From contig DATJWA010000027.1 of the NCBI GenBank assembly GCA_035501555.1, positions 256,156 through 320,155 of the forward strand: a stretch of 64,000 bases of DNA, written 5' to 3'. This document shows positions 33,267 to 59,073 of this stretch, in pieces. Every line of letters begins with the position of its first letter. Positions within the stretch are counted from its first letter, which is position 1. The position numbers were made by a program, and so were the translations under genes. This stretch comes from Thermoplasmata archaeon. GTDB taxonomy: Archaea; Thermoplasmatota; Thermoplasmata; Lutacidiplasmatales; UBA184. Under the pieces are notes generated by a model. The model made no database searches and had not been told where the DNA came from. It was given only the letters and a program-made list of their open reading frames with translations.

Positions 33267-33302
33267 CGGGATTAATCTAACAGGTGTCGGTTACAGCCCG
33301 TG
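33267..33302 (+). promoter_or_regulatory. Conserved paralog promoter block GGGCGGGATTAATCTAAC, 18 nt before the GTG start of cyclase A.
   Basis: The same block occurs upstream of five other paralogs at identical spacing. Confidence 0.6.
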
Positions 33303-35231
33303 GCCGAGACTCGGCGGCTCGCTGCCATCATGTTCACCGACATGGTGGGATTCACCGCGCTGGGCCAACGGAACGAAACGCTCTCGCTGGAGCTGCTCGA
33401 GGAGCAGCGAGCACTGCTCCGACCGATCTTCTCGCGGCACGGGGGCAAGGAGGTCAAGACCCTCGGAGATGGCTTCCTCGTGGAGTTCACGAATGCGCTC
33501 GAGGCGGTGCGGTGCGCCTACGAGATTCAGCGAGTAAGTCGCGAGTCAAACTACTCTCGTCCCTCGGACCGGCGGGTACTCCTCCGGGTCGGGGTCCATC
33601 TGGGAGACGTGGTGGAGGCGGACGGCGACATCTCCGGGGACGCAGTGAACGTTGCGTCGCGGATAGAGCCTCTCGCGGAAGCCGGAGGGGTTTGTATCAG
33701 TCGCCAGGTTTACGACCAAGTCCACAACAAGTTCGAGCTGCCACTAATGAGCCTGGGTCCACGCCGGCTCAAGAACGTAAGTACGCCCATCGAACTGTTC
33801 AAAGTGGGGATGCCCTGGACGGAAGGGGGTGGCGCCGGATTGTCCGAAGCCGACCGGAACCGGATTGCGATCCTTCCTCTCGCCAACTTCAGCCCAGCCC
33901 CCGGCGACGACTACTTCGCCGATGGCATGACAGATGAGATCATCTCCACCGTGTCGGGGATCAGTGGCCTCAGCGTGATCTCGCGCACCTCCGCGATGCG
34001 CTACAAGCAGTCCACGAAGAGTATGACCGAGATCGGACGCGAACTGAAGGCAGGAAAGCTGCTGGAAGGGAGTGTTCGGAAGTCCGGAAACCGGGTTCGG
34101 ATCACCGTCCAGCTGATCGACAGCGAAAGCGATGCCCATCTCTGGGCCAAGAGCTACGACGGCAGCTTGGACGACGTCTTCGAGACCCAGTCGGACATCG
34201 CGCGCAAGATCGCCGAGGCGCTGAAACTGCCCTCCCCTCGACCGGGGGGTCGGGCCACGAGTCCCGAGGTGCTTGCCCTCTGCCTTCAGGCACGCACGTT
34301 ATGGAACCGGTTCACCCCGGAAGCGAACGAGCAGGCGATCGTCCTGTACGAGGACGCGCTGAAGATCGACCCGGAATCCGCCCGTGCGATCGCCGAGCTT
34401 GCGGACTGTTACGCTTCCGCGGCGAACATCGGCTGGATGGACAAGAAAGAGGGTTACGAGAAGGCCCGGTCGCTGGCACGCCGTGCTCTCGAGCTGGACG
34501 AGTCGCTGCCCGAGGCCCACTTCGCCCTAGCTCACATGTTGATGGACGACGACTACCCCGCGGCGGAGATCGAGCTCAAGAAAGTCCTCTCACTGAACCC
34601 GAGCCACGCCGACGCCCATGAATGGTACGGAAGTGTTCTGCGGGGCCTCGGCCGCCTGGAGGAGTCGCTGGAGGAAGCCAGGAAAGCCTACGAACTGGAC
34701 CCGCTTCCGCCGGCGCGCGCCTTTTTCCTGGCCACAGAGTACTTCTTTGCCGGACGGAACGACGAAGCGCTCGCCATCTGCCAGAAGGTCATTCAGACCG
34801 AGCCCGGATACTCCCCGGCGTACTACGGCCGGGCCATTCTGAATGCCATCCGGGGATTGAGAGAGGAGGCCTACCGGGACCTGCGCAGTTACCGGAGGCT
34901 TACCAACGACATCCAGCACAAGAGCATCCAGGCCCGGATCGAAGCTCACCTGGGGAACAAGCAAGAAGCAACCCGGCTCATCGAGGAGACGCTGGCGCTC
35001 GTCGCCGCGAGCAACTCCCCGAAGGCTTGGAGCGACAGCGACCAGCTGTCGTACACCTATGCCCTAATCCAGGATCGAGAGCGGTTCTTTCCGTTCGTGG
35101 AATATTTGATTGATCACAAACTCATGAGCCCCGGTGAACTTCGGGACCCCTCGTACCAGAACATGGCGGGGGATCCTCGGTTTCCGGAACTGCGCAGAAA
35201 GCTTCGGGCGTCGTATGGGATCCCCGACTGA
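33300..35231 (+). CDS. Class III adenylate/guanylate cyclase (CHD) – TolB-N-like – TPR protein (paralog A, C-terminal subtype 1).
   Basis: GTG start. RRLAAIMFTDMVGFT, KTLGDGFL and GDAVNVASR cyclase motifs. ILPLANFS…YFADGMTDE TolB-N-like segment, then TPR repeats. Confidence 0.9.
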   Translation: MAETRRLAAIMFTDMVGFTALGQRNETLSLELLEEQRALLRPIFSRHGGKEVKTLGDGFLVEFTNALEAVRCAYEIQRVSRESNYSRPSDRRVLLRVGVHLGDVVEADGDISGDAVNVASRIEPLAEAGGVCISRQVYDQVHNKFELPLMSLGPRRLKNVSTPIELFKVGMPWTEGGGAGLSEADRNRIAILPLANFSPAPGDDYFADGMTDEIISTVSGISGLSVISRTSAMRYKQSTKSMTEIGRELKAGKLLEGSVRKSGNRVRITVQLIDSESDAHLWAKSYDGSLDDVFETQSDIARKIAEALKLPSPRPGGRATSPEVLALCLQARTLWNRFTPEANEQAIVLYEDALKIDPESARAIAELADCYASAANIGWMDKKEGYEKARSLARRALELDESLPEAHFALAHMLMDDDYPAAEIELKKVLSLNPSHADAHEWYGSVLRGLGRLEESLEEARKAYELDPLPPARAFFLATEYFFAGRNDEALAICQKVIQTEPGYSPAYYGRAILNAIRGLREEAYRDLRSYRRLTNDIQHKSIQARIEAHLGNKQEATRLIEETLALVAASNSPKAWSDSDQLSYTYALIQDRERFFPFVEYLIDHKLMSPGELRDPSYQNMAGDPRFPELRRKLRASYGIPD

Positions 35232-35369
35232 GCTCGCGATCGGTCATCCGTAACCAGACCGAGACGCTCCGAGAGGATCCGGATTCGACGCGGAGTAGAC
35301 TTCGGGATGTTATACACCGAGAGTGCCTAGCACGTAGGGGCCGGCAACGGTCTCAGGGGCAGTGCCACC

Positions 35370-35651
35370 ATGTCGGCATACTTGGTCGCGGACGTCGAGT
35401 GGAAGGACGAGGAGCAGTTGGCAAAGTACGGCGAGGGGCATTCCGAGCTCCTCGCCAGGTACGGTGGCCGGATCTTGGTCGGGTCTAAGGACGTCGAAGT
35501 TGTCGAGGGTAGCTGGAAGCCTCGCCAGCTGGTGATCTTCGAGTTCCCAACTCGGGAGGCGTTCCACGCTTGGTACGACTCGGCCGAGTATGCCCCTCAA
35601 CTCGCCCGACGCAAGCAGCATGCGGACTCGAACGTTGTAGTGGTCGAGTGA
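35370..35651 (+). CDS. DUF1330 family protein.
   Basis: MSAYLVADVEWKDEEQLAKYGEGH…, 93 aa. Confidence 0.8.
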   Translation: MSAYLVADVEWKDEEQLAKYGEGHSELLARYGGRILVGSKDVEVVEGSWKPRQLVIFEFPTREAFHAWYDSAEYAPQLARRKQHADSNVVVVE

Positions 35652-35684
35652 TGGGGTCGATCGAACGGCGACGATTGCCGAAAC

Positions 35685-35725
35685 GTGTCGGAGAGGGACC
35701 CAACTGAGTTCTTCCGCCTCCTAAG
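35685..35725 (+). repeat. tRNA-3'-end-like hairpin repeat.
   Basis: gtgtcggagagggacccaactgagttcttccgcctcc. Confidence 0.5.
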
Positions 35726-35841
35726 AGCGCGGCGCGGACGGATTCTGGGAGGGCTGAGACCCGGCCCAGTCTCCCTCGTCCGGTGCGGCGTCGGCGTGGA
35801 CGACCCAGGGGCGAACTGCCGATCCGGGCCAAACTGCCCAC

Positions 35842-35850
35842 TTTTATATT
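35842..35850 (+). promoter_or_regulatory. TATA box (TTTTATATT) 22 nt upstream of the peroxiredoxin ATG, implying a leaderless transcript.
   Basis: Seen in the sequence. The position is the archaeal −26/−27 convention relative to a transcription start site at or near the ATG. Confidence 0.55.
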
Positions 35851-35871
35851 GGAAAGCCCAAGGCGGACCTA

Positions 35872-36387
35872 ATGACGAACGCCGGCGGGAGCCGAACGAT
35901 CTCGATCTTGAAGCCGGGGATCCGGGCACCTGATTTCACGCTCAAGAGTACTCCTGATCAGAGCGTGTCTCTTCGAGATTTCCGGGGCCGGCCGGTCGTG
36001 ATCGCCTTCTATCCTGCCGACTGGAGCCCAGTCTGCAGCGACCAGATGGGACTTTACGCGCAGGTCATGCCCGAGTTCAAAAAATTCAATGCAGAAGTAC
36101 TGGGGATTTCCGTCGACGGTATATGGACCCATCTCGCCTTCGCGAAGGACCGCAAGCTGAACTTCCCGCTCCTCTCTGACTTCGAACCGAAGGGTGCGGT
36201 TTCCCGTTCGTACGGGGCATACGAGGCGCACGTCGGCGAGTCCGCGCGAGCTCTCTTCGTGGTTGATGCAAGAGGCTCCATCGCGTGGAGCATGCTCTCT
36301 CCCGACGGCGTCAATCCCGGAGCGGACGGGATTCTCTCCGCGCTCGAACGGCTCGAGCGAGACGCCCCTCGGAGTAAGTCCGCATGA
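35872..36387 (+). CDS. Peroxiredoxin (AhpC/TSA family).
   Basis: FYPADWSPVC peroxidatic Cys motif. 171 aa. Confidence 0.85.
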   Translation: MTNAGGSRTISILKPGIRAPDFTLKSTPDQSVSLRDFRGRPVVIAFYPADWSPVCSDQMGLYAQVMPEFKKFNAEVLGISVDGIWTHLAFAKDRKLNFPLLSDFEPKGAVSRSYGAYEAHVGESARALFVVDARGSIAWSMLSPDGVNPGADGILSALERLERDAPRSKSA

Positions 36388-36938
36388 CGCAGCAATACCA
36401 AGCGCCGCGACTCACGGTGCCCGTCGGGGCCAGGGACCATGCGGAGGGCCCACCGGGGGCCCGGGTAGTTCTCCTCGAGTACGGGGACTATCAGTGCCCG
36501 TACTGCGGGGCAGCCTACCCCATCGTGAAACGGATCCAGAAGCACCTGGGGGAGAGGCTGCGATTCGTCTTCCGGAATTTTCCGATCACGAACGCCCACC
36601 CCCAGGCGCAGTGGGCAGCAGAACATGCGGAGGCGTCGGCCGCTCAGGGTAGGTTCTGGCAGATGCACGACTACCTCTACGAGCACCAGGATTCGTTAGG
36701 GGACGAGGCGTTCTTCGCCCGGTTCGAACAAAAGCTCAAGCTCGACCTGGCCCGACTCGACCGGGAAGTCGCCCAGCATGTCCACCTGGACCGGATCCAG
36801 GAGGACTTCATGAGCGGGGTACGAAGCGGCGTGAACGGAACGCCAACGTTCTTCATCAACGGCGTGAGGTACGACGGATATCCCGAGTTCGCACCTCTGG
36901 TTTCCGCGCTCGAGACGGCCGAAAAGGGGTCGCGATAA
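36384..36938 (+). CDS. DsbA-like thioredoxin-fold thiol:disulfide oxidoreductase.
   Basis: CPYC active site. ATGA overlap with the peroxiredoxin gene. Confidence 0.85.
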   Translation: MTQQYQAPRLTVPVGARDHAEGPPGARVVLLEYGDYQCPYCGAAYPIVKRIQKHLGERLRFVFRNFPITNAHPQAQWAAEHAEASAAQGRFWQMHDYLYEHQDSLGDEAFFARFEQKLKLDLARLDREVAQHVHLDRIQEDFMSGVRSGVNGTPTFFINGVRYDGYPEFAPLVSALETAEKGSR

Positions 36939-37194
36939 CCTCGAGTCCACCGGCCGGGATACCGCCCCCTTTCAACGAGCGGGGCCGGCGGAGTCTGTCG
37001 GAGGGGGGCGACGTGATTTTTAAACCCTCCACTTAGGGGTGCCGGGGTTCAGACGAGTTGGGACCGGCACTGGGCGAGCGAGGGCTAACACCCCTGACGA
37101 TCGACGGAGCCGCTCCCGTCTTCCCGGCGGCGCGACGGGGAGCGATCGTCGGCCCGGGGTCGGAGTATTAACGAAGATTTCGGTGGCCTCGGCC

Positions 37195-37833
37195 ATGAGT
37201 TCACCCCCGACGGGCGGAACCCATGAGTCGAGGTTCTCCGCCCAGGACTACGCGCAAGCGATCCGAGCGGACTACATCGCGGGAGAGACCCCATGGGACA
37301 CAGGAGTCCCCAACCCCGAACTTATTCGGGTGGTCGAGAAGGGAGGATTCCCGGGAACCGCTGTACTCGAAATGGGTTGCGGAACGGGGACGAACTCGGT
37401 CGAGCTTGCTCGACGAGGTTATCGCGTCACCTCGGTGGACCTCGCGGACGTCGCGATCTTCAAGGCGCGGGAAAAGGCGAAAAGCGCGGGCGTGAACGTC
37501 GACTTCCGCGTCGGCGACCTCACGCAGACGGAACTCGGCGGTCCGTACGATTGTCTTCTCGACATTGGCGTCTATCATGGGATCCGGAATCGAGACCTGA
37601 CTGGATTTCTGCGCGCCGTGGTGCGTCTGTCTCGACCGGGAACGAGGTGGCTATGTATCGCCGGGAGCGCCAACTCACCCCAGCGAGATGGCCCGCCAAT
37701 GGTCCGGGAAGAAGAGTTTCGCGCGGAGCTCGGGTCGGCCTTCAAGATCCTCGACGCGCACGAGTTCACCTATCTGGAGCTCGCACCGAACTTTCGACCG
37801 CCGTTCTGGTCGATCCTGATGGAACGTCGTTGA
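37195..37833 (+). CDS. Class I SAM-dependent methyltransferase.
   Basis: Internal ATG 37195. VLEMGCGTGTN motif I and the DIGVYH motif. Confidence 0.75.
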   Translation: MSSPPTGGTHESRFSAQDYAQAIRADYIAGETPWDTGVPNPELIRVVEKGGFPGTAVLEMGCGTGTNSVELARRGYRVTSVDLADVAIFKAREKAKSAGVNVDFRVGDLTQTELGGPYDCLLDIGVYHGIRNRDLTGFLRAVVRLSRPGTRWLCIAGSANSPQRDGPPMVREEEFRAELGSAFKILDAHEFTYLELAPNFRPPFWSILMERR

Positions 37834-37965
37834 GGAAACCTGGGAGTTCCGACGCTTCTCGAGGCGTGAGCGCTCTCCGGCTCGGTGACAGGTCGAGCTG
37901 GGCGCCTGGCGGGACCCGTCTCCCGACCGAATCTCCCGACGGGCTTGCACCCGCTCGGAGCGGAC

Positions 37966-38463
37966 CTACTTCCGATTCTCGGGGAGCTCTCGTGCGGCGC
38001 GTTCGAGGCTGCCCAGGCACTCGGTCCAGCCGGCGACGAGCCGAACATAGATGTGCGGAGCGCCGCGCTGGAGTTCCTCCAGCTTCTCGTGGACGACGTA
38101 GACGTGCGTCCGACCCTCGGACTCCGGTCGAAGTCGGATCGTGACCAGCGTGTCGAAGTACTCTCCCTCCTTCTCCGGTTCGGTCCCCACAAACGCCCAG
38201 CGGTACACAAGTTCCCGCGGCGGGTCGATCTTAAGGAAAAGTCCTTCGAACTTTCCCGTGCTGACTCCATTCTGTGAGTGCCAGACCTCGATCCGGCCAC
38301 CTACCCTGGGCTCTACCGTGACCTGCTCAACGATGAGGTCGCTGGGCGCGATCCACTGGCGGAGCAGGTCCGGTTCAAGAAAGGCACGGAAGACCTGATC
38401 GGGCGGTGCGTGCAGGATCCGCTCCACACGAACGACGGCCGTCGGCTCGTCCGCTTGGATCAT
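37966..38463 (-). CDS. SRPBCC/AHSA1-like protein, co-transcribed with ArsR.
   Basis: Internal ATG 38463 (MIQADEPTAVVRVERILHAPPDQVFRAF…). Confidence 0.8.
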   Translation of the reverse strand: MIQADEPTAVVRVERILHAPPDQVFRAFLEPDLLRQWIAPSDLIVEQVTVEPRVGGRIEVWHSQNGVSTGKFEGLFLKIDPPRELVYRWAFVGTEPEKEGEYFDTLVTIRLRPESEGRTHVYVVHEKLEELQRGAPHIYVRLVAGWTECLGSLERAARELPENRK

Positions 38464-38789
38464 CGCGTTTCCCGCCCTTCCGGGCGGGCCCCTTTCGTGA
38501 GGACCTCGTCCATCCGGGTCAGGCCCTCGTCCCAGAACCGCTGGTAGTACGAGAGCCACTCGGAAGCCTCTCGAAGCGGCCGGCCCTGAATCGAGTACAA
38601 GTGCTGACGCCCCGCCTTTCGAAGACTGACCACGCCCGAGTCCAGGAGCAGCCGCAGCTGCTTCGAGACGGAGGGCTGGGACATGCGGGTCCGACCCACC
38701 AGGTCGTTGACCGACCGCTCACCTTGACGGAGGGCCTCGAGGAGGTGGCGCCGCGACGGTTCTGCGAGGATCTGGAAGACGTCGCTCAC
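38460..38789 (-). CDS. ArsR/SmtB family transcriptional regulator.
   Basis: LAEPSRRHLLEALRQGERSVNDLV…MSQPSVSKQLRLL. Its stop overlaps the start of the SRPBCC gene. Confidence 0.9.
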   Translation of the reverse strand: MSDVFQILAEPSRRHLLEALRQGERSVNDLVGRTRMSQPSVSKQLRLLLDSGVVSLRKAGRQHLYSIQGRPLREASEWLSYYQRFWDEGLTRMDEVLTKGARPEGRETR

Positions 38790-38890
38790 AGAAAACGAAT
38801 GCCTAAAGGGATATATGTCCTTTTGTACATGTGTTCGACCGGGGCGGGGTACCGGTATCGCGAACCGCCGAAGACTGGGGTGTCAGGAAG

Positions 38891-39481
38891 ATGCGAAAAG
38901 TGACGGCGAATGTGTACATGACTCTGGACGGCCGCGGCGAGTTTCCGAAGTACCCGGAGAAGAAACGGAAGCTGACGGAGCCCAACGCGCTCTTCCGCTA
39001 CATGTGGTACGACCGGTTCGACGATGTCACGACGGTCGTCATGGGCCGTCGATCCTTCCTAGGTCACCAGCGCACCTGGAGCGAGAAGGCGGTAAAGCCC
39101 GGTGAGGCGACCTGGCTACTCGACTACCGACGGTATCTTGACCGCGTGGAGAAGATTTGCCTCTCCCACCGCCTCAAGTCCACCGACTGGGAGAACTCGA
39201 GGATCCTGAGCGGAGACCTTGCCAAGATCCTGAGCAAACTGAAGCGGGAGAAAGGCGGAAACATCATGCTGGAAGGCGGACCCGCGGTGGTCCGTGAATG
39301 CCTGAGGCGCAATCTCGCCGACGACTACTGGTTCTTCGTCATGCCCGTGGTGTACGGGAGAGGTCCTCGATATTGGGACCCGATGAAGACCCAGACCACG
39401 CTCAACCTCATCGAAACGAAGCCCGGAGAGGACAAGGAGATCATGCTCCACTACGAGGCGGTCAAGGGATTCTCGCCCTAA
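38891..39481 (+). CDS. Dihydrofolate reductase family (RibD_C-like) protein.
   Basis: Internal ATG 38891 (MRKVTANVYMTLDGRGEF…). Divergent from arsR. Confidence 0.8.
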   Translation: MRKVTANVYMTLDGRGEFPKYPEKKRKLTEPNALFRYMWYDRFDDVTTVVMGRRSFLGHQRTWSEKAVKPGEATWLLDYRRYLDRVEKICLSHRLKSTDWENSRILSGDLAKILSKLKREKGGNIMLEGGPAVVRECLRRNLADDYWFFVMPVVYGRGPRYWDPMKTQTTLNLIETKPGEDKEIMLHYEAVKGFSP

Positions 39482-39711: not shown

Positions 39712-39752
39712 GTGTCGGAGGGGGACACTGCTAAACTGCTCACATCCCCGAT
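39712..39752 (+). repeat. tRNA-3'-end-like hairpin repeat.
   Basis: gtgtcggagggggacactgctaaactgctcacatccccgat. Confidence 0.6.
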
Positions 39753-39893: not shown

Positions 39894-39929
39894 GGGGCTT
39901 AATCTAACCGAAGACGGTTACGCCCTGTG
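39894..39929 (+). promoter_or_regulatory. Conserved paralog promoter block GGGGCTTAATCTAAC upstream of cyclase B.
   Basis: Identical motif and spacing as in the other paralogs. Confidence 0.6.
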
Positions 39930-42900
39930 GCCGAAACCCGACGACTCGCCGCCATCATGTTCACCGACATGGTGGGGTACTCGGCTCTCGCCCAGCGGGA
40001 TGAATCCCTGGCCCTTCGGCTCTTAGACGAACACCGAGGGCTCCTTCGCACCATCTTTGGTGCCTATGCGGGTCGCGAGGTCAAGACCATCGGAGACGCG
40101 TTCCTCGTGGAGTTTCCAAGCGCCCTCCAGGCGATGGAGTGCGCCGTGGCCATTCAAAGAGAGCTTCGAGAGCGCAACGAACAATCCGGGGGAGGGCACA
40201 TCGAGCTCCGGATCGGTATTCACCTCGGAGACGTCATTGAACGGGCCGGGGACCTTCTCGGCGACGCCGTCAACATAGCCTCGCGCATCGAACCCCTGGC
40301 CGAAACCTCGGGGATCTGCATCAGCGGCCCGGTCTTCGACCAAGTCCGAAACAAGGTGCCCTACTCCTGCACCCAGCTCGAGCACGCGTTCCTGAAGAAC
40401 ATCGATACGCCCATGTCCGTGTACAGCCTGGATCTCCCGTGGGTCGTTCCTCCCGCAGCTCGGCTCACCCCGTGGACTGACCGAGAGTCGGAACTCGGAA
40501 CGATAGAGCGCATCATCGAAGCGGCCGCCCGCGGCCAGGGCAATGTCGTCGCGTTCACCGGCGAATCGGGAATCGGCAAGACCCGCCTCGCGGACGAAGG
40601 GATCCGCAAAGCGGAAGGGAAGGGATTCCGCACCCTACGAGGTCGGGGTCATCAGGACGAGCAACCGATTCCCTACTCACTGTGGGTCCAAGTGGCCCGA
40701 GGCGTGCTCCGGGACATTCCGGCCCCCCTCCTCTACAAGCTCTCCGCCGGTTGCGCGGCATCGCTCGTGAAGCTCGTTCCCGAGGTGGGCGAACGACTTG
40801 GCCAACTCCCTTCGGCGGGGGAGAATATTCCCGATGCTGCGCGACTCCAGTTCTTTGAGGGGATCGCCCAATTCCTGATCAACCTGAGCCGTGAGTCTCC
40901 ACTCCTGGTTCTGCTCGACGATCTGCAGTGGGCTGACCCCGGGTCGCTCCGACTGCTGGATTACTTGGCCGAACCTATCCGGAGCCAGTCGGTACTGCTG
41001 TTCCTCACGTTTCGAGACTCCTTGGAGGATGAAACCCCGCTATTGAAGACGGTCATTCAGGATCTCACCCACTCGCGGGCAGTCGTTCGGATCCCCGTGA
41101 GGCGCATGGAGGGGGGTCCCGCTCGCCAATTAGTGGGGGCCATCCTCGGAACCAAGGATCCTCCACCCGAACTCGTGGGTCTGGTTCGGCAGAAGACCGG
41201 CGGGAACCCACTCTTCGTGGAGGAACTCCTCCGGTCGTTGACGGAAGAGCGCCAACTGGTCCGTCGGGGCGAGAACTGGGACTCCTCGGCGATCGCCGAT
41301 GTAGGAGTCCCCTCCACCATGCGGGATGTTATTCTCAAGAGGGCGGCTCGCGCCGGCGAGCAAGCCAAGGACGTCCTCTCCGTCGCCGCGGTGCTGGGGA
41401 TGGAGTTCGACTTCGAGCTCCTCCAACGGGTGAGCGGTGTGGACCCCGATCGCTTGCTGGCGCAGGTCGAGGGTCTTCTCCGGGCCCGGCTCCTGCGAGA
41501 GCGGGAGATCGCTCCGGGTCGGTCGGTCTACACGTTCGCCGACGATCAGACGAGAGAGGTCCTCTACCGCGAGCTCTCACTGGTCCGACGTCAACGCTAC
41601 CACCTCAAAACGGCCCAAGCACTCGAAGGGCGGTTCGCGCGTGGGGGCGACGCAGTTGCGGGAGAACTCTCCCTGCACTATCATCGGGGCAACGACCTTT
41701 CGAGCGCGCTCAAGTGGACCCTCTTGGCGGGCGAGAACTCAGCCAGTAGCTACGCGCGGGAGCAGGCCGTCATGTACTACCGTACGGCGCTCGAAATCCT
41801 GAAGGAGGCTCCCAACGAGCGTACTCGGGCCGAAGTTCTCGAGAGATTGGGGACCGAGTTGGAGATCCTCGGGCAGTACGAGGAGTCGGTACGTAGAAGG
41901 ACCGAGGCGTCGGAGGTGTACGAACGGCTGGGAGATCGACTGCGCGCCGGGGCGGCCCTCCACCAAGCCGCGTCCCACTCGGGCTGGACGCTCCTCGGTG
42001 AGTTTCCCTTCGCGGAGGCGCCGCTCACCAAGGCCAAGGAGCTGCTGGAGTCCGTTCCTCCCAGTCCGGAACTCGCGAGGTTGTACCTGGACTACGCGGC
42101 GTACTTGGGAGGAGCCGGCCGGACGAAGGAGGCCCGGGCCCTGTGGTCCCGGTCCCTGGAGCTCGCCGATAGCGTGGGAGCCCCGGTCGTGAAGGCCGCC
42201 ATATGCCTCGAACTCGCGAAGACCGCTCCCTCCGGGGCCCGAGACGAGGTCCGACGCAACATTGACCTGGCCCTCGAGATCGGCCTCGAGCACGACCCTC
42301 CGACGGCGCTGGAGGCGTACTTTCACGGGGCTTGGTACGCCGCGACGGGACTGGGCGACATGGACGGCTGTCAAGAGTGGATTCGAAGGGCGGTCGAGTA
42401 CGCCCGGAAGGTGAAGGCCCCGAACTTCGAGGTGGCGATCCAGGGAAGCCTCGGCTCGTTCGCCCGGATATGGGTCTCGGACCTCGACGAGTCGCTCCGC
42501 TTGGCGGTGGAGCATCAAAAGTCCATTCGAGCACTCAACCAGGCACAAACGGCACACAATCTCTATCACCTCATCGCAGTCCCGTTGCTTCGGGGAGAGC
42601 TCGACGGTTTGCCGGACCTGCTCCACCAGGCCGAGGAAATCCTTTCGAAGGAGATGGCGTTGTATCAGGAGATCTGGTTCTCCTTCATTTCCGGGCTGAT
42701 AGGCCTCGTGAGCGGAGATCCCTCCGGCGGCGAGAAGCAATTGCTGCGAGGTATGAAGGCCCTCCGAAAGCGGGGAGAGGTAGAGTTCGACGGCTTCATT
42801 CCGATCTGGCTCCAGACGCTGCTCTTCGATGCCGCCATTTCTCAACAGGCATTGCAGCGAGCCGAAGACTACCTGGCGGGGCTCGCCGGATCGGTCGAGC

Positions 42901-43344: not shown

Positions 43345-43385
43345 GTGTCGGAGGGGGACACTACGGAATTCTTCGTATCATCACC
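43345..43385 (+). repeat. tRNA-3'-end-like hairpin repeat.
   Basis: gtgtcggagggggacactacggaattcttcgtatca. Confidence 0.55.
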
Positions 43386-43907
43386 ATACGGCGGGCGGAC
43401 GGCCGCTCCGTCCCTATGGCTCGAAGCAAGAAGGCGGGCGCTCGGGGCCACCCAATCTCAAATGCCCTCGACTTTAGATCTGCGTGATTGAAAGCAGCGC
43501 GGGTTCGCTTCCCACATTCCGGGTTGAGTGACCTTTCCCGGAAGTGTCTTCCAGAATGGCAAAGTCCCCTGTCGCGAAACGTCGCCCCTCTCCGTCACTG
43601 GCCTTAACCTCGAGAGTTTCTCGGAGCACGGAAAATATCTGGCGGGTTGGCGATGGGTGCGGTTGCCCGTACCAACCCACCGGCACCACGAGAAACAGGT
43701 GGCGCTCGGCCTTCATCGGAGGCGAGACGCAGAGGGGAGGCGCTGGTGGGGCGAAATCCACGGAAGAAGTAGTAACCACGACCTCGGCAAAATGGGACTC
43801 GCTTTGCGCGTCCGAGACCAACCGACCCATCGTGATATCCGGACATTGCGGCATGCTATGCTCCGAGCCGATTGTGCTCGACCCGGCAGCGAAGGCGGGC
43901 CAAGAAG

Positions 43908-43947
43908 GTGTCGGAGGGGGGAACTACGAATGGTTCAAATCCCTCAC
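43908..43947 (+). repeat. tRNA-3'-end-like hairpin repeat.
   Basis: ggtgtcggaggggggaactacgaatggttcaaatccctcac. Confidence 0.6.
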
Positions 43948-44026
43948 AGGGCAAATGCGGCCCAGTGGCCACTTTCGACCCGCGAATGAACCCGGTCTGA
44001 GTACGTGGCCAGAGCCCTCCGTGAAG

Positions 44027-44062
44027 GGGTCTTAATCTAACGAATGCCCTTCTCGCGCCGTG
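44027..44062 (+). promoter_or_regulatory. Conserved paralog promoter block GGGGTCTTAATCTAAC upstream of cyclase C.
   Basis: Same motif and spacing. Confidence 0.6.
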
Positions 44063-49364: not shown

Positions 49365-49403
49365 CACGACCCGATTGTGCCCCCGTTCGGCAAGCGACCC
49401 TTT

Positions 49404-49440
49404 TTCGGAAGGGGGGTTGACGGGTTCAAATCCCCGCCAG
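49404..49440 (+). repeat. Divergent T-arm-like element (GGGTTCAAATCCCCGCC) after a T-run. It lies between convergent genes D and H.
   Basis: ctttttcggaaggggggttgacgggttcaaatccccgccagagagg. It carries a GTTCAAATCC T-loop signature on the plus strand. Confidence 0.4.
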
Positions 49441-50925: not shown

Positions 50926-50964
50926 GGTCGGAGGGGGGAACTCCCAGTTTGTTCAAGTCCCCCA
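50926..50964 (+). repeat. tRNA-3'-end-like hairpin repeat.
   Basis: ggtcggaggggggaactcccagtttgttcaagtcccccac. Confidence 0.55.
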
Positions 50965-50975
50965 CCGAAGTACGG

Positions 50976-52197: not shown

Positions 52198-54660
52198 ATG
52201 CGAGACCCCGTGTGGTTCTCGGTTCTCCATCGCCGGACCTTGTCGCGCCCGTCCAAACGCATGAGGCCCGCAGGTCAACAGTCAGACTCGGCGAACGGCA
52301 CGACTTCGTCCACGACCCGCATTGAAGGGATCTCTTCCCCGTCGGCCCCGCCCGCCGATATCGGTGTCCCGACCCGGACGGTCGGCCGGGAAGGCGAAAT
52401 CCGCACAATCGCCGACTTTCTTGGACGAATTGAAAGGAGGTCGGAGAGCGTTCTTCTCTTCTCCGGAGAAGCCGGGGTCGGTAAAACACGTCTCCTCCGT
52501 GAGGCCGAGTCGAGGGCCACGAAGATCGGAATGACGGTCCTCTCGGTCGATTGTGGTGCCCTGGACCACGGGGTCGCCTACGGTCCATGGGTCGAATTGC
52601 TTCGGCACTACCTTGAAACGACTCCTCGGAAGCAGGCGTATTCAACGGTCCAGCCGCACCTGCGTGCCCTCAGCTCCATCGCGCCGGGGTTGAACGACCT
52701 TGTGTGGCTCTTTGACCCGAGCCACAGGTCCGGCACCGACGGGCGTGAGACTCGGGTCGAACCGATTGGCCGTTTCTTTGTCGCCATCGCGGACGAACGT
52801 CCGCTGCTGCTCGCGATAGACGACCTCGGCAGTGCGGACAACTCTTCGCTAGAGCTCTTGGGGAGTGTCGCGCGCTTGGGTCGACCGTTCCCCCTCGGAA
52901 TCGTGGGCACCTATCGCGACACGCAACCGGAGGAGAACAAACCGCTGCGGCACCTGCTGTCGAACCTCGAGAGTCAGAAGTCTTGCACCACCGTGACTGT
53001 CCGCCCCCTCGACCGAGATCACCTGGGTGTGCTCATCGGCGAGGTGCTCCAAACGAAGGAGGTCCCGACCGCGTTGCGGGATGCCGTGTTCGAGAAGTCC
53101 CGAGGCAACCCGTACTATGCCGCGGAGATTGCCCAATGGCTGCTGGAGGCGGGTACCCTCCGTGCGACGTCCGCGGGCCGGTCGTGGGACTCGGACTCGA
53201 AATTGGAGCTACCCGCCCCCTTCGAGCGAGCGATCGAGGTCCGTCTCGGTCGGACCCCGAGCCTGAACCTCCCCGTCGGGAGTATCCAGGATCGACTTGC
53301 GATTCTGCCGTTTGCCAACCTCAGTCCGGACCCGGGTGACGCGTATTTCGCCGACGGACTCACCGAGGAGATGATTGGCGTGGTCTCCCAGGTGAAGGGG
53401 TTCCAGGTGATTGCCCGCACCTCAGTGATGCCCTACAAATCTGCCTCGAAAGGGGTCTTCCAGATCGGGCTCGAACTGGGCGTCTCATCGATCCTCGAAG
53501 GAAGCGTTCGTCGAGCCGGAGATCGGTTGCGGATCGCGGTGCAATTGATCGACGTACGATCCCAGGCCCACCTCTGGGCGCACACCTTCGAGCGCGCGCT
53601 CGGCGACGTGTTTGCCGTGCAGTCCGAGATCGCGAGAAAGGTGGCGAATGCACTCAAGATCAAATTGGGCCCGGCCGAGAGGAGTCGGCTGGAATCCAGA
53701 CGCTCGGTGCGGCCGGATTCGTACCTTGCCTACCTGAGGGGCCGGATCTCGTTGCATACCCATACCCAGGCATCCTTGGAGACCGCGAAGAACGAATTCG
53801 AACGGTCCATTTCGCTCGACCCGATGAACGCCGCCGCTCATGCCGGACTCGCCGCTGTAACGGAGATGATAGCGTGGTGGTTCCCAGGACCAGGCTTCAA
53901 GAGATCGACCCGAGGGAGCCGGGGATTGGCGGCGCGGGCGCTCGACCTCGACCCAGACCTCGCGGAGGCGCATGAGGCGGTCGCGTTGGTCCTGGAAGCC
54001 GAGTACGACTATCGGGGGGCGGAAAAGGAATTCAAGTTGGCTCTGGAGCTGAGTCCGAGCTACTCGATCGCGCACCATAACTACGCCTCTATTCTGGAGG
54101 AGATGGGACGGCCCGAAGAAGCGCTCTTGCAGTACTCACTCGCCGAGGGAGCCGACCCTCTTTGGGCGAGGAACCTCTTCTGGTTCGCCACCTTACTCGT
54201 CTGGTCGGGTCGGCCGGACGAAGCTCTCGTGAAGATCCGAGCGCTCGGCCAACTGGAACCCGACGGGGTGGACTATCACGCCGCCCTCACCACCTACTAC
54301 CTTTCCCAGTCCAAACCCCAGGAAGCTCTCGACGAGCTTCGTAAGGTCGTCGAGCTGGAGCCAGAACCTCGTCGCAAGTCGGTCTATCGGGCTCGCTACC
54401 TCGCGCTTTCGGGCAGGAAGAAGGAGGCCGAGGCCCAACTTCGGCACGAAGAATCGTTGCCCGTAGTTGGCGTCATCACGTGGGCCATCGCGCTGACGTA
54501 CGCCGAAATGGGGAACCTCGATGACTGTTTTCGTCTGATGGAGCAGGCCGCCGACGCTGGGTACGTTGCGTTCCAGCAACCGAGGCTGAATCCGATTTAC
54601 GAAAACGTCCGAACCGACCCGAGACTCCAGCAATTGTTAGCAAAGTTGGGCATCCCATGA
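52198..54660 (+). CDS. STAND/AAA ATPase – TolB-N-like – TPR protein lacking the cyclase domain (paralog E).
   Basis: Walker A FSGEAGVGKTRL. ILPFANLSPDPGDAYFADGLTEE segment. TPR repeats. No CHD and no TTAATCTAAC promoter block. Start uncertain: 52198 or 52261. Confidence 0.8.
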   Translation: MRDPVWFSVLHRRTLSRPSKRMRPAGQQSDSANGTTSSTTRIEGISSPSAPPADIGVPTRTVGREGEIRTIADFLGRIERRSESVLLFSGEAGVGKTRLLREAESRATKIGMTVLSVDCGALDHGVAYGPWVELLRHYLETTPRKQAYSTVQPHLRALSSIAPGLNDLVWLFDPSHRSGTDGRETRVEPIGRFFVAIADERPLLLAIDDLGSADNSSLELLGSVARLGRPFPLGIVGTYRDTQPEENKPLRHLLSNLESQKSCTTVTVRPLDRDHLGVLIGEVLQTKEVPTALRDAVFEKSRGNPYYAAEIAQWLLEAGTLRATSAGRSWDSDSKLELPAPFERAIEVRLGRTPSLNLPVGSIQDRLAILPFANLSPDPGDAYFADGLTEEMIGVVSQVKGFQVIARTSVMPYKSASKGVFQIGLELGVSSILEGSVRRAGDRLRIAVQLIDVRSQAHLWAHTFERALGDVFAVQSEIARKVANALKIKLGPAERSRLESRRSVRPDSYLAYLRGRISLHTHTQASLETAKNEFERSISLDPMNAAAHAGLAAVTEMIAWWFPGPGFKRSTRGSRGLAARALDLDPDLAEAHEAVALVLEAEYDYRGAEKEFKLALELSPSYSIAHHNYASILEEMGRPEEALLQYSLAEGADPLWARNLFWFATLLVWSGRPDEALVKIRALGQLEPDGVDYHAALTTYYLSQSKPQEALDELRKVVELEPEPRRKSVYRARYLALSGRKKEAEAQLRHEESLPVVGVITWAIALTYAEMGNLDDCFRLMEQAADAGYVAFQQPRLNPIYENVRTDPRLQQLLAKLGIP

Positions 54661-54745: not shown

Positions 54746-54786
54746 ATGTCGGAGGGGGACATTACTGAATTGTTCATATCCCCGAC
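54746..54786 (+). repeat. tRNA-3'-end-like hairpin repeat.
   Basis: atgtcggagggggacattactgaattgttcatatccccgac. Confidence 0.65.
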
Positions 54787-54927: not shown

Positions 54928-54963
54928 GGGGCTTAATCTAACGAATACCGTTTCCGGGCCATG
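54928..54963 (+). promoter_or_regulatory. Conserved paralog promoter block GGGGCTTAATCTAAC upstream of cyclase F.
   Basis: Same motif and spacing. This gene uses an ATG start. Confidence 0.6.
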
Positions 54964-56892
54964 GCCTCCAGTCGCCGACTCGCCGCCATCATGTTCACGG
55001 ACATGGTCGGCTCCACGGCTTCAGCGCAGGCCAATGAGGCAAGGGCCCTCCGGTTGCGGGACGAGCAGGCCGGACTGGTCCGTCCCCTCTTCGCCGCCCA
55101 TCAAGGGCGCGAAGTCAAGTCAATGGGCGATGGCTTCCTAGCCGAGTTCGATAGCGCACTCCGAGCCGTGCAGTGTGCGATTGACATCCAACAGCATTTG
55201 CACGAACGGAATTCCCAGCCAGGCGTGGCACCGATTCAACTTCGTATTGGAGTTCATTTGGGGGACGTCGAAGAACGCGAGCGCGACATCTTCGGCGACG
55301 CAGTCAACATCGCCTCACGCATCGAGCCGCTCGCGCCCCCCGGAGGCGTCTGCATCTCGGGAGAGGTATCCAGTCAGATCAGAAACAAGATCCCGAACCG
55401 GCTCGAGAAACTGCCGCCGACGGCGCTGAAGGGGTTGCAGGCATCGATCGACATCTATCAAGTGGTATTGCCTTGGACGGAAGCGGGCGGCGCTGGGTTG
55501 TCCGAAGTCAATCGGAACCGGATCGCGATCCTTCCCCTCGCCAACTTCAGTCAAGCCGCCGGCGACGAGTACTTCGCGGACGGGATGACAGACGAGATCA
55601 TTTCGACGGTGTCAGGGATCAGCGGCCTCAGCGTGATCTCGCGGACATCTGTAATGAGATACAAACAGACCTCCAAGAGCATGACCGAGATCGGACGCGA
55701 ACTAAAGGCAGGAAAGCTCCTGGAAGGGAGCGTTCGGAAGTCCGGAAATCGGGTGCGGATCACCGTCCAACTGATCGACGCCGAGAGCGACGCCCATCTC
55801 TGGGCCCAGAGCTACGACGGGAGCATCGACGACGTCTTCGAGACCCAGTCCGAAATCGCTCGCAAGATTGCAGAGGCGCTGAAGCTACCCTCGCCTCGGG
55901 GCGGAGGCCGGGCTGAGAGTCCTGAGGTCTACCCGCTCTGCCTCCAGGCCCGCACATTGTGGCATAAGTTCACCCGCGAAGCGAACGAGCAGGCGATGCT
56001 CCTGTTGGAAGGCGCCCTAAAGATCGATCCCGAGTCCGCTCGGGCGACGGCCGGGCTCGCGGATTGTTACGTTACCGCAGCTAACGCCGATTGGGTTGAG
56101 AAGGACGAAGGTTACGGCAAAGCTAGAACGCTGGCCAGACGTGCGCTCGAGCAGGACGCCTCGCTGCCCGAGGCCCATTTCGCCCTAGGCCATGTGTTGA
56201 TAGTGGACGACTACCCCGCAGCCGAGGCCGAACTCAAAAAAGCGCTCACGCTGAACCCCAGTCACGCGGACGCCCACGAGTGGTACGCGGAAATCCTGCG
56301 AGGCATGGGTCGAGTGGCTGAGGCGACGCGGGAAGTCGAGAGGGCCCTCGAACTGGACCCGCTCCCGCCCAGTCGGGCGTTTTTCTTGGCGACCCAATAC
56401 TACTTCGAAGGGCGTAATGACGAGGCGATCGCAGTCTGCAACAAGATCATCCAGACGGAGCCGGGGTATGCCTGGGCGTATGCCGGGCGGGCCGTGCTGA
56501 CTTCCATCAACGGAGAGAGGGAGAGAGCCTACCGGGATTTGCAAACCTACAGACGACTACAGCGGGACGAGATCGCGTACAAGAGCCTCCAGGCTCGGAT
56601 CGAAGCTCACCTGGGAAACAAGGAAGAAGCGTCACGCCTCATCGATGAGGTGCTCGCGCTCGAGGCAGCGAGTGAATCCCCGAATGCGCGAAGCGAAACT
56701 TACCAGCTATCCTTTGCGTATGCCCTCATCGATGATCGAGCGAGATTCTTTCCGTTCGTGGAAGGTCTGATCGACCACAATAAGATGGATCCCGGTGAAC
56801 TTCGGGACCCCGCGTACCAAAACATGGCGAGTGATCTTCGATTCGCATCCCTCCTCCAGAAACTCCGCAAATCCTACGGCATTTCCAACTGA
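54961..56892 (+). CDS. Class III cyclase (CHD) – TolB-N-like – TPR protein (paralog F; mosaic of a D-like CHD and an A-like C-terminus).
   Basis: The CHD is ~85% identical to paralog D. The C-terminal 450 aa are ~80% identical to paralog A. Confidence 0.9.
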   Translation: MASSRRLAAIMFTDMVGSTASAQANEARALRLRDEQAGLVRPLFAAHQGREVKSMGDGFLAEFDSALRAVQCAIDIQQHLHERNSQPGVAPIQLRIGVHLGDVEERERDIFGDAVNIASRIEPLAPPGGVCISGEVSSQIRNKIPNRLEKLPPTALKGLQASIDIYQVVLPWTEAGGAGLSEVNRNRIAILPLANFSQAAGDEYFADGMTDEIISTVSGISGLSVISRTSVMRYKQTSKSMTEIGRELKAGKLLEGSVRKSGNRVRITVQLIDAESDAHLWAQSYDGSIDDVFETQSEIARKIAEALKLPSPRGGGRAESPEVYPLCLQARTLWHKFTREANEQAMLLLEGALKIDPESARATAGLADCYVTAANADWVEKDEGYGKARTLARRALEQDASLPEAHFALGHVLIVDDYPAAEAELKKALTLNPSHADAHEWYAEILRGMGRVAEATREVERALELDPLPPSRAFFLATQYYFEGRNDEAIAVCNKIIQTEPGYAWAYAGRAVLTSINGERERAYRDLQTYRRLQRDEIAYKSLQARIEAHLGNKEEASRLIDEVLALEAASESPNARSETYQLSFAYALIDDRARFFPFVEGLIDHNKMDPGELRDPAYQNMASDLRFASLLQKLRKSYGISN

Positions 56893-56929: not shown

Positions 56930-56970
56930 GTGTCGGAGGGGGACACTACTGAATTCTTCATATCCCCGAC
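56930..56970 (+). repeat. tRNA-3'-end-like hairpin repeat.
   Basis: gtgtcggagggggacactactgaattcttcatatccccgac. Confidence 0.65.
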
Positions 56971-57114
56971 AACCCCCGTTTCTCGATGAAAGCCCGATTA
57001 CGCAACTACCTGTAGTCGGGAAAGTGCGATTGTGAGACTACACGAAGCGCTCGGCCTTCTAGGGGTTTGGATACATCAAATCAACTGGGCGGAACAAGAC
57101 CTCCGCGTTGAGCC

Positions 57115-57150
57115 GGGGCTTAATCTAACAAGTGCCGTTCCCGGGGAGTG
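57115..57150 (+). promoter_or_regulatory. Conserved paralog promoter block GGGGCTTAATCTAAC upstream of cyclase G.
   Basis: Same motif and spacing. Confidence 0.6.
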
Positions 57151-59073
57151 GCCGCGACCCGCCGCCTTGCCGCCATCATGTTCACCGACACAGTCGGCTA
57201 CACCGCCTCCGCGCAGGCGGACGAGGGCCGAACGCTCGACCTGCTCCGACAGCAGGCGGAGCTGGTTCGTCCGCTCCTGGTGGTCCACCAGGGCCGAGAG
57301 ATCAAGACAACCGGGGACGGTTTCCTGGTCGAGTTCGACAGCGCACTCAAGGCTACCCAGTGTGCGGTGAGCATTCAGCGACGAATCTACGAGCGAAACT
57401 CCGAAGGCGGCCTCGCCCCGATCCAGATCCGGATCGGCATCCACTTGGGAGATGTCGTGCAGAGTGGCGCGGACATCCTCGGAGACGCGGTGAACATCGC
57501 GGCTCGGATCGAACCGATTGCCGAGCCCGGGGGCATCTGCCTGTCGGGCGCCGTTTACGAGCAAGTCCGGAACAAGGTACTCGAGAAGTTCGAGAAGCTC
57601 CCACCTGCCGCGCTCAAGGGGGTGGAGGCGCAGATCGACCTTTACCGAGTGGCGCTGCCGTGGAACGCTCTTCCGTCCTCAGCACACGACCTGGTTCCCG
57701 CGGGGATTGCCGTCCTCCCATTCTCCAACATCAGTCCGGATCCGAACGACGCCTACTTCGCAGACGGGCTGACCGAGGAATTAATCTCCGTGCTCTCTCA
57801 GTTTCGAGAGCTTCGGGTGATTGCGCGGACCTCGGTGACGCCCTACAAATCCACCTCAAAGGGGGTCAGTCAAATCGGGGCTGAGCTGGGCGTTTCCTCG
57901 ATCCTGGAAGGGAGTGTGCGAAAGGCGGGGAATCAGCTTCGGATTACTGCACAGCTGATCGATGTGCCTTCCCAGGGACACGTCTGGGCCAACTCCTACA
58001 ACCGAGAGCTCGATGATGTTTTCGTGGTCCAAGCCGAGCTCGCGAAGCAAGTCGCGGAGGCGCTGAAGATCGAACTCCAAGCCACCGAGAGGGCGAAACT
58101 CGAAGCGCGGCCGGCGGTGAGGCAGGACTCGTATCTCGCCTATCTGAAAGGACGCACGCTCCTGCACCGGTGGTCGCCGGAGACACTCAAGGCGGCGAAA
58201 GAGCAGTTCGAGCTTGCGATATCTCTGGATGGCCGAAATGCGTCGGCTTATTCAGGACTATCCGAGGTAATTCTACTGGACGGACTTTGGTTTTCTAGCA
58301 GTCCCCGAGTGGAGTGGAACGACTCAAGCCGGAAACTCGCCACTCGGGCGTTAGAAATCGACCCGAATCTCGCGGAAGCCCACTGCTCGCTCACCTTGGT
58401 TTTGTGGGACGAGTACCAATATGTGGAGTCCGAAACAGAGTTCAATCGAGCAACAGCTCTCAACCCCAGCCTCGCCGTAGCACACCGACACTACGGCCTC
58501 TTCCTGGCGGAGGAAGCTCGACCCGACGAGGCCCTACGCGAATTCGAGCTGGCCGAGGCCTTGGACCCGCTGTCAATAATCGTCCTCGCCAATCATGGCA
58601 TGTTGCTCATTCGTCTCCGGCAGCTGGACAAAGCGAGAGTCGCGATTGAGAAGCTGGGCCGGTTGGACGAATCCACCAGAGCATACCACGCCCTCCTGGG
58701 TGACTACTTCTGGGCGAAGGGCGATCACGCAGCGCAAATCGAACAACTTGACCTTACAATCAGAAGTTCGCCACAAGACCCACTGAATCCGATGTTTCGC
58801 GCGGCGGTCTATGCCTCGGCGGGCCGAGCGGACCAAGCACGGGAGTTGCTTCCCTTAGTAGAAGCGATGCCAGAAACCGCTCTCAAGTTCGCTACTCTTA
58901 TGGAAATCCACGCGGACCTGAACGACCTAGATGAATGCTTTAGGGTCATCGAGAAGGCAGTCGACGCTCACAAGTTCGGTGCGATCATATTGTTCCGGCT
59001 GGACCCCAGCTACGAGCAGGTGCGTCAGGACCCAAGGTTCAAGAGGATTCTTCAGAGGATGCACCTCGCCTGA
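57148..59073 (+). CDS. Class III cyclase (CHD) – TolB-N-like – TPR protein (paralog G, subtype 2).
   Basis: GTG start. Cyclase motifs. IAVLPFSNISPDPNDAYFADGLTEE segment. TPR repeats. Confidence 0.9.
   Translation: MAATRRLAAIMFTDTVGYTASAQADEGRTLDLLRQQAELVRPLLVVHQGREIKTTGDGFLVEFDSALKATQCAVSIQRRIYERNSEGGLAPIQIRIGIHLGDVVQSGADILGDAVNIAARIEPIAEPGGICLSGAVYEQVRNKVLEKFEKLPPAALKGVEAQIDLYRVALPWNALPSSAHDLVPAGIAVLPFSNISPDPNDAYFADGLTEELISVLSQFRELRVIARTSVTPYKSTSKGVSQIGAELGVSSILEGSVRKAGNQLRITAQLIDVPSQGHVWANSYNRELDDVFVVQAELAKQVAEALKIELQATERAKLEARPAVRQDSYLAYLKGRTLLHRWSPETLKAAKEQFELAISLDGRNASAYSGLSEVILLDGLWFSSSPRVEWNDSSRKLATRALEIDPNLAEAHCSLTLVLWDEYQYVESETEFNRATALNPSLAVAHRHYGLFLAEEARPDEALREFELAEALDPLSIIVLANHGMLLIRLRQLDKARVAIEKLGRLDESTRAYHALLGDYFWAKGDHAAQIEQLDLTIRSSPQDPLNPMFRAAVYASAGRADQARELLPLVEAMPETALKFATLMEIHADLNDLDECFRVIEKAVDAHKFGAIILFRLDPSYEQVRQDPRFKRILQRMHLA

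Follow-up and report, generated by a model that had tools for sequence, protein, structure and literature searches.

A gene cluster for probable soluble class III adenylyl cyclases with exchangeable sensor modules in a Thermoplasmata archaeon

Introduction

Class III cyclase homology domains (CHDs) fused to large regulatory modules are best known from bacteria. In Mycobacterium tuberculosis, the proteins Rv0386, Rv1358 and Rv2488c combine an N-terminal CHD with an AAA_16-type STAND NTPase and TPRs; Rv0386-type proteins carry a C-terminal LuxR helix-turn-helix (HTH) domain, and the substrate-specifying pair of Rv0386 is Gln/Asn. In LipJ (Rv1900c) an alpha/beta-hydrolase precedes the CHD. Another type, in which the CHD is followed by a 'TolB-like' segment and TPRs (COG2114 plus COG5616-type; compare TIGR04510, 'putative peptide modification system cyclase'), occurs in Mesorhizobium and in metagenome-assembled genomes (MAGs) of Verrucomicrobia and Gemmatimonadota, and to our knowledge no member of this group, bacterial or archaeal, has been characterised. 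Here we analyse a stretch of 64,000 nucleotides (the window, by which we mean the whole stretch) from a soil Thermoplasmata archaeon (Lutacidiplasmatales, UBA184; assembly GCA_035501555.1, contig DATJWA010000027.1, positions 256,156 to 320,155 of the forward strand), in which eight large genes with these architectures and their variants lie within 26 kb.

Cyclic AMP (cAMP) has been detected in archaea since 1986. A census in 2005 reported archaea to lack genes for adenylate cyclases of class 1 or class 3 (PMC1183210), and a review in 2023 stated that no archaeal protein making, degrading or binding cAMP had been characterised and that the archaeal 'class IV cyclases' are not cyclases (PMC10249747); COG2114 genes were noted in sponge-associated Thaumarchaeota (PMC9289680). 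The literature that we searched contained no description of a cyclase expansion in Thermoplasmata. A first-pass annotation of the window, made from the letters alone, had proposed a sensing system with no established description in archaea; this holds as far as publications go, but the family is widespread and is automatically annotated as adenylate/guanylate cyclase.

We interpret the region, with a probability of about 0.7, as a lineage-specific expansion of soluble class III adenylyl cyclases, which on the basis of their sequences and predicted structures would form a multi-input cAMP signalling repertoire of the kind found in mycobacteria and rhizobia.

Eight modular genes within 26 kb

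Domains were called with Pfam profiles (gathering score of Guanylate_cyc, PF00211: 21.9 bits), and our own hidden Markov models (HMMs) of the modules (CHD, TolB-like and others) were used to type architectures in the window and in related loci (numbered with the prefix L). The eight genes (A to H; Table 1) have the modules and architectures that the first-pass annotation had read from the translations, including the CHD motifs FTDMVG, GDGFL and GDAVNxASR, and the HMM searches identified the proposed cyclase domains as CHDs: seven genes (A-D, F, G and H) match Guanylate_cyc at 43-61 bits, all above the gathering score, and a tblastn search found exactly seven CHDs in the whole window. AAA_16 was matched in B, C, E and a ninth gene, which is also as described earlier, at 78-96 bits (the ninth gene being listed at 77.6). 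TPR families were matched in every member gene except H, and the STAND genes have a C-terminal TPR sensor region. The Walker motifs GxxGxGK[ST] and hhhhDD (ED in the ninth gene) are intact in B (GESGIGKT and LLVLLDDL), C, E and the ninth gene, the NTPase of which is only 20-29% identical to those of B, C and E. In the CHD-first genes the CHD stands at the very N-terminus, and about 10 disordered residues link it to the regulatory module. The member proteins contain no hydrophobic 19-mer of the type expected in a membrane helix and, judged by their sequences, are soluble and have no membrane segment.

The genes had been described as a tandem array. They are clustered, but not strictly in tandem, as six unrelated genes (DUF1330, AhpC/TSA peroxiredoxin, DsbA-like, methyltransferase, AHSA1 and RibD_C by Pfam) lie between A and B. 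Gene E probably starts at 52261, since the NCBI product has 799 amino acids; a tblastn search of the whole window found no degraded CHD remnant upstream of it, and its full-length homologs (36-55% identity) have the same architecture.

Table 1. Positions of the member genes and other features in the window
Feature	Position	Strand	Evidence and remarks
Gene A: CHD + TolB-N-like + TPR	33300-35231	+	Guanylate_cyc 56.9 bits, TPR families; module HMMs CHD-TOLB; hexad D-K-D-D-N-R
Gene B: CHD + STAND NTPase (AAA_16) + TPR	39927-43217	+	Guanylate_cyc 59.8, AAA_16 84.4 bits
Gene C: CHD + STAND NTPase + TPR	44060-47095	+	Pfam; weak MalT-like match in TPR
Gene D: CHD + TolB-N-like + TPR	47448-49364	+	Pfam; module HMMs
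Gene H: alpha/beta-hydrolase, then CHD; LipJ-like	49462-50814	-	Pfam Hydrolase_4 and Guanylate_cyc
Gene E: STAND NTPase + TolB-N-like + TPR, without cyclase domain	52198-54660	+	AAA_16 78 bits
Gene F: CHD + TolB-N-like + TPR, chimera	54961-56892	+	Module identities; switch of DNA identity
Gene G: CHD + TolB-N-like + TPR	57148-59073	+	Gene modelled in full
Ninth member: STAND NTPase (AAA_16) + MalT-like TPR	12812-15184	+	AAA_16 77.6, TPR_MalT 36.5 bits; without CHD or TolB-like domain
Box GGGNTTAATCTAAC	57116-57129; also 33268-33281, 39895-39908, 44028-44041, 47416-47429, 54929-54942	+	19-32 nt upstream of start codon
Six unrelated genes	35370-39481		Pfam
tRNA(CAU) with 30-nt intron	59203-59304	-	Rfam RF00005, 57 bits, full length; at the right edge of the low-GC island, between G and S3Ae
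Ribosomal protein S3Ae	59331-60179	-	Pfam; right flank
PrkA-like/MoxR-type AAA ATPase and VWA-domain protein	60191-63521	+	
40-nt repeat, consensus TGTCGGAGGGGGACACTACTGAATTSTTCATATCCCCGAC	39712-39751, 43345-43383, 43908-43947, 47239-47279, 50927-50965, 54746-54786, 56930-56970	+	Repeat family search, nhmmer
Degenerate copies of the 40-nt repeat	Starts at 33203, 35687, 36997		
Second repeat	49378-49434, 59093-59149; also 43931-43943	+	First two just past the stop codons of D and G

Catalytic sites of the cyclase domains

The catalytic hexad reads D-K-D-D-N-R in six of the seven window CHDs and D-K-D-D-H-R in H. Loss of the metal-binding Asp residues would have pointed to inactive pseudo-cyclases; both are kept in 7/7 window CHDs and in 89/89 related archaeal CHDs. 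The residues that specify the purine are the canonical, adenine-type Lys/Asp pair in all seven window CHDs and in 88 of the 89 related ones, the transition-state Asn is kept in 83/89 CHDs of related archaeal loci, and the transition-state Arg is present in all seven CHDs of the window. The predicted fold is that of class III cyclases; the nearest solved structures are adenylyl cyclases, and the likeness to cUMP/cCMP synthases is lower. Thus, as far as their residues indicate, the seven CHDs are apparently catalytically competent, homodimeric adenylyl cyclases.

In every hydrolase-CHD gene the transition-state Asn is replaced by His, and in the alignment to the Rv1900c chain 1ybt the same His falls at this position. 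Gene H shares more than this residue with LipJ: it is colinear with the whole NCBIfam LipJ model NF058673 (343 bits, positions 6-446 of 449). However, its score lies below the equivalog cutoff of 800, it has the substrate Lys at the position of an Asn in the 1ybt chain, and it lacks the Ser nucleophile, the elbow GATDT having Thr where GxSxG has Ser. In orthologs of H this position holds Thr, Thr, Ser, Ser and Arg. H may therefore be a LipJ-like cyclase in which the hydrolase domain, with Ser replaced by Thr, would serve as a ligand-binding regulator.

Sensor modules

The middle segment of A, D, E, F and G had been called TolB-N-like, which is correct for the fold (it matches the TolB N-domain) but not for the sequence family, as neither Pfam TolB_N nor, for the isolated domain, any NCBIfam profile matched. 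Together with the first helical repeats, the TolB-N-like domain matches the entire periplasmic domain with which CadC senses ligands and pH (3ly7), a TolB-N-like alpha/beta subdomain packed on a helical bundle, and weak profile matches point the same way (E to CadC, G and E to HilA/EilA). There are also differences from CadC: sequence identity is 13%, the window module is predicted to be cytoplasmic and is longer, with about 460 residues and extra TPRs, and its fusion partner is a cyclase or a STAND NTPase instead of the ToxR-type DNA-binding domain of CadC. The TolB-TPR module is also found behind AAA_16, DUF87 or AAA heads or alone, among homologs of gene E.

B and C have the second module, in which TPRs follow a STAND NTPase of the MalT type. 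It gives these proteins the layout of Rv0386, Rv1358 and Rv2488c, the difference being that neither Pfam nor NCBIfam matched an HTH in B or C; their CHDs differ from Rv0386 in the substrate pair, too. Gene B also resembles the cyclase-NTPase-TPR part of TIGR03903 (TOMM kinase/cyclase fusion; profile positions 358-935), but at 200 bits it remains under the curated cutoff of 706, and no kinase domain was matched in B or C.

Exchange of modules and distribution of the family

The proposed interchangeability of the modules was confirmed by gene F, which is, by its sequence, a clear chimera of a D-type cyclase domain and an A-type sensor module. Identity to D and to A is 80% and 55%, respectively, in the CHD, 51% and 92% in the TolB-like domain, and 29% and 71% in the TPR part; the junction lies in the interdomain linker at about 55440-55470, and DNA identity switches between the windows at 55398 and 55458. 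Mosaics of this kind also exist between genomes, in both directions: D and its counterpart in L037 share 82% in the CHD, 49% in the TolB-like domain and 31% in the TPRs, and A and its counterpart in L032 share 49%, 86% and 74%, respectively. Among 55 family members, mean pairwise identity was 0.73 for the TolB-like domain, 0.64 for the CHD, 0.43 for the TPRs and 0.22 for the linker.

For all window paralogs but A, an ortholog with a CHD 82-91% identical exists in another genome (A reaches 61% at best), and the ortholog of C in L057 is 86% identical over its full length. Compared with one another, the window paralogs mostly share 53-69% of their CHD residues (80% in the recombinant D/F pair). 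Because orthologs elsewhere are closer than the paralogs are to each other, the paralogs must be old.

The distribution scan used one genome per species. Full-length relatives of G with 41-61% identity occur in about 60 loci, in dozens of soil and peat Thermoplasmata MAGs, often clustered, whereas bacterial full-length relatives reach only 36-40%. Other Thermoplasmata have clusters of CHD-TolB, CHD-STAND and hydrolase-CHD genes, as do a Verrucomicrobia MAG (five in tandem, L064) and Mesorhizobium delmotii, and in the bacterial locus L065 the CHD-TolB-TPR cluster includes a CHD-STAND gene. The architectures had been termed characteristic of actinobacteria; they are indeed known bacterial types, but with such clusters in Mesorhizobium and Verrucomicrobia the label is imprecise. 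Bacterial CHD-TolB-TPR proteins have the same order of the three modules; they differ in that several lack the Lys/Asp pair, for which the archaeal CHDs are uniform, and in the archaeal nature of the host. Some homologs carry the JGI product name 'TolB-like protein/class 3 adenylate cyclase/PilF'.

A shared promoter box

The core TTAATCTAAC of the box listed in Table 1 lies 19-28 nt upstream of the start codon in all six CHD-first genes of the window (6 matches versus 0.02 expected). It stands, with at most one mismatch, ahead of 46/84 archaeal CHD-first genes in other loci but 0/12 bacterial ones, a further difference from the bacterial CHD-TolB-TPR genes, and an exact copy was found upstream of 35/84 CHD-first genes in other Thermoplasmata species. 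The box is far better conserved than the proteins. Since other genes in the window have AT-rich boxes at the same distance from the start, the box is probably the TATA box and TFB recognition element (BRE) of leaderless mRNAs, unusually well conserved. It probably serves these genes as a common promoter, at which a single regulator might perhaps also bind.

The host genome

Two features of the window, the ribosomal protein S3Ae and the intron of the adjacent tRNA gene, are its only evidence from informational genes. The tRNA, which the first-pass annotation had placed at the flank of the array, was confirmed by Rfam as tRNA(CAU); ARAGORN (default settings) reported none because of the intron. 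The 30-nt intron was placed after the anticodon. ARAGORN calls a tRNA-Leu(CAA) in L015 and L028, and the call in L015 overlaps the orthologous tRNA.

Identical proteins in NCBI are named 'Thermoplasmata archaeon'. The junction from G through the tRNA to S3Ae is the same in two ENA assemblies from different samples (100% and 99.94% identity), and the gene order is also kept in L005, which comes from another species and another study and where two CHD genes are accompanied by the tRNA, S3Ae, the PrkA-like ATPase and the VWA gene. The contig is thus archaeal and not a bacterial or chimeric assembly, the possibility that had been raised against the annotation. The neighbourhood comparison that had been suggested gave both clusters of related genes in other Thermoplasmata and conserved synteny in L005. 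The PrkA-like/MoxR-type ATPase and the VWA-domain protein form a conserved pair beyond the tRNA and S3Ae, and this position is kept in L005 and L089.

GC content is 0.60-0.65 in the island and 0.72-0.73 beyond it (GC3 0.72-0.79 versus at least 0.90). The low-GC region extends from about 26000 to 59200, and its right edge coincides exactly with the tRNA gene. The 16-33 kb block is intermediate and rich in small stress or accessory genes (AHSA1, SnoaL, YCII, glyoxalase, DUF2461). Low GC as a general property of the family was rejected, as the difference from the flanks averages only -0.009 over 33 related loci, compared with about -0.09 in the window.

A candidate cAMP receptor in related loci

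Pfam scans of the neighbours and tblastn with a cyclic nucleoside monophosphate (cNMP)-binding domain found no cNMP-binding gene in the window. Two related loci on metagenome contigs contain a gene in which cNMP_binding is fused to a thioredoxin-reductase-like Pyr_redox_2 domain (L083:910-2634 and L087:3332-4822, both on the minus strand); copies of the 40-nt repeat (see below) stand exactly on either side of it, and it separates a CHD-TolB from a CHD-STAND gene. A homolog with 53% identity (L075:16277-17920) is found in a Mesorhizobium locus, about 5 kb from a TolB-TPR gene. Because all named relatives of the fusion gene are bacterial, the assignment of its contigs to the lineage is based on context (the shared repeat and the CHD genes). 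The fusion protein is a candidate cAMP receptor. The peroxiredoxin and DsbA-like genes of the island offer a lead, not a result, towards a link between cAMP and redox stress. The closest database relative of the fusion gene, in L090, is surrounded by transposases and small open reading frames (ORFs).

Proposed function and alternative explanations

By analogy with other class III cyclases, the regulatory module would control whether two CHDs form an active dimer. In A, D, F and G, binding of a ligand or partner to the CadC-like module might gate the dimer; in B and C this could be achieved by ligand-triggered, nucleotide-dependent oligomerisation of the STAND core, a property predicted for the STAND genes from the family type. 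The TPR part, as the least conserved, would set input specificity, and the TolB-like part, as the most conserved, would act as a common transducer. Gene E and the ninth gene may be non-cyclase members that use the same sensor parts. The resulting cAMP would be read by proteins with cNMP-binding domains, and the repertoire could diversify both by recombination at the linker between CHD and sensor and by rearrangement of whole genes between genomes.

Several points weigh against this interpretation. The window itself has no cNMP-binding protein, phosphodiesterase or CRP-like regulator, and the contigs with the candidate receptor, whose named homologs are all bacterial, were placed in the lineage by their context. 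Catalysis and the role of cAMP are predicted here from genes and modelled structure, control by dimerisation is carried over from other class III cyclases, and ligand binding by the sensor modules is likewise predicted. In addition, the CadC sensor acts in the periplasm, in contrast to the presumably cytoplasmic module described here, and the GC content of the island, about 9 points below that of its flanks, leaves room for some lateral gene movement.

Of the other explanations for the cyclases, an enzyme that is active but makes a product other than cAMP (cGMP, a pyrimidine cNMP or another nucleotide) is unlikely. Two residues cannot settle substrate choice with certainty, some mycobacterial cyclases with atypical residues are promiscuous, and the bacterial relatives in L064 and L065 have Glu/Lys, Arg or Ser at the substrate-specifying positions; against this stand the near-uniform Lys/Asp pair of the archaeal CHDs (7/7 and 88/89) and the adenylyl cyclases as closest solved structures. 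Still less probable is that the CHDs are ATP-binding pseudo-enzymes with a scaffolding or regulatory role, comparable to 6yii, a class III cyclase-like regulator that binds ATP. Inactive members are frequent in large paralog families, and H, with His for Asn and Thr at the hydrolase nucleophile position, might be one; yet Rv1900c, which bears the same His, is an active cyclase, and conservation of six catalytic positions across paralogs and species would be unexpected without selection for catalysis.

The layout of an N-terminal enzymatic domain, a STAND NTPase and a variable TPR part had also suggested an antiviral defence island, in which Avs-like STAND-TPR sensors would be combined with a Pycsar-like cyclic-nucleotide alarm raised by the CHDs, and the low-GC setting with repeats next to a tRNA gene, the fast evolution of the TPRs and weak PADLOC matches to PycC are compatible with this idea. 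These matches, however, reach only 17-32 bits (E 1e-8 to 1e-3), compared with 43-61 bits for the general cyclase model, the STAND genes matched no Avs model in PADLOC, and the window ORFs scanned include no known defence gene. The active sites carry the purine-specifying Lys/Asp pair, the fold resembles adenylyl cyclases more closely than cUMP/cCMP synthases, and no effector gene lies beside any cyclase of the window. Furthermore, the paralogs are old, with orthologs and partly kept synteny in other species, the neighbours belong to redox and stress metabolism, and the same gene sets occur in free-living rhizobia, all of which makes a defence role quite improbable. The least probable explanation is a bacterial fragment misjoined to, or misbinned with, an archaeal contig. 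Its low GC and architectures best known in bacteria would agree with such an origin, but not the recurrence of the tRNA junction in two assemblies, the synteny in another species and study, the archaeal-style promoter box, the homologs on megabase-scale Thermoplasmata contigs and in a 2.18-Mb chromosome record, or the identities of full-length relatives, which are lower in bacteria (36-40%) than in archaea (41-61%).

Together with dozens of related Thermoplasmata MAGs, the window reveals that one archaeal lineage possesses many class III cyclases that look catalytically complete and stand behind archaeal-style promoters, giving concrete candidates for the makers of archaeal cAMP. The locus offers a natural setting in which to study the assembly and rewiring of a second-messenger network of bacterial type in an archaeon, and the recurrent swapping of cyclase heads with CadC-like or STAND modules at one linker is a clean case of modular evolution. 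As the architectures are known from bacteria, the advance lies in distribution and testability rather than in mechanism.

Repeats and the tRNA edge of the island

The island was described earlier as filled with repeats. These are real and comprise paralogous segments, the promoter-like box and a 40-nt intergenic element, which occurs at nearly every boundary of a gene unit, always on the plus strand and nowhere outside 33-59 kb. Its first 14 nt are the reverse complement of the 3' end of tRNA(CAU), and the core GTCGGAGGGGG occurs nine times, all on the plus strand and all within 36997-59214 (0.25 expected). The array ends at the real tRNA, the outer flank of which resembles the left flank of one element. 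Only a subset of related loci has the repeat, always on the strand of the CHD genes (nhmmer), and in metagenome contigs it forms arrays with a spacing of 1.7-3 kb, which delimit SDR, transporter, amidohydrolase and cNMP-binding genes as well. In three comparisons (two between the window and L057, one between L083 and L090) a homologous DNA block ends in or at a repeat and the neighbours differ.

The repeat might act as an att-like site for recombination, or it might be an intergenic repeat peculiar to the lineage; the pattern would fit both recombination between repeats and serial insertion at the tRNA in a site-specific manner. It is possible, though improbable, that the island at 33-59 kb is a tRNA-anchored array of mobile cassettes of 1-3 genes, with the 3' end of tRNA(CAU) as the origin of the 40-nt site at the cassette borders. 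The single strand and boundary positions of the copies, the tRNA with its 14-nt core at the end of the array and the block ends in the three comparisons agree with this reading. The island would then resemble integron arrays, including the archaeal integrons of PMC9668308, in that same-strand repeats 1.7-4 kb apart bound units of 1-3 genes and homology ends at the repeat, but it differs from them in that the cassettes carry their own promoters and that the array adjoins a tRNA gene, from the 3' end of which the common core comes. If true, soil Thermoplasmata would have site-specific capture and shuffling of cassettes, an integron-like logic without attC and IntI, which would exchange sensor-cyclase repertoires along with a cNMP-binding redox enzyme and stress genes. 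No integrase or recombinase was found among about 70 ORFs scanned in the window and 12 repeat-carrying loci, a scan of the larger ORFs that was not exhaustive. A classical integron was rejected, as IntI was absent from the scanned ORFs and, by inspection, the repeat lacks attC cores (RYYYAAC...GTTRRRY).

The repeat belongs to no known RNA family, since an Rfam E-value scan of 33000-59400 matched only tRNA(CAU). A conserved hairpin was considered and dropped, because the outer stem pairs are not kept in all copies (those at 47241 and 50927 end in CCCCCAC). The segment between two adjacent copies (43384-43907) has no gene with a family match, the ORF at 43528-43989 being without a Pfam match, and may be an emptied or decayed unit. 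The second repeat (Table 1) holds a T-arm-like GGGTTCAAATCCC in the orientation opposite to that of the real tRNA, and the orthologous tRNA has comparable inverted T-arm fragments at its flanks in L005, L015 and L032; from their sequence, the fragments in the second repeat may be decayed copies of the tRNA 3' end.

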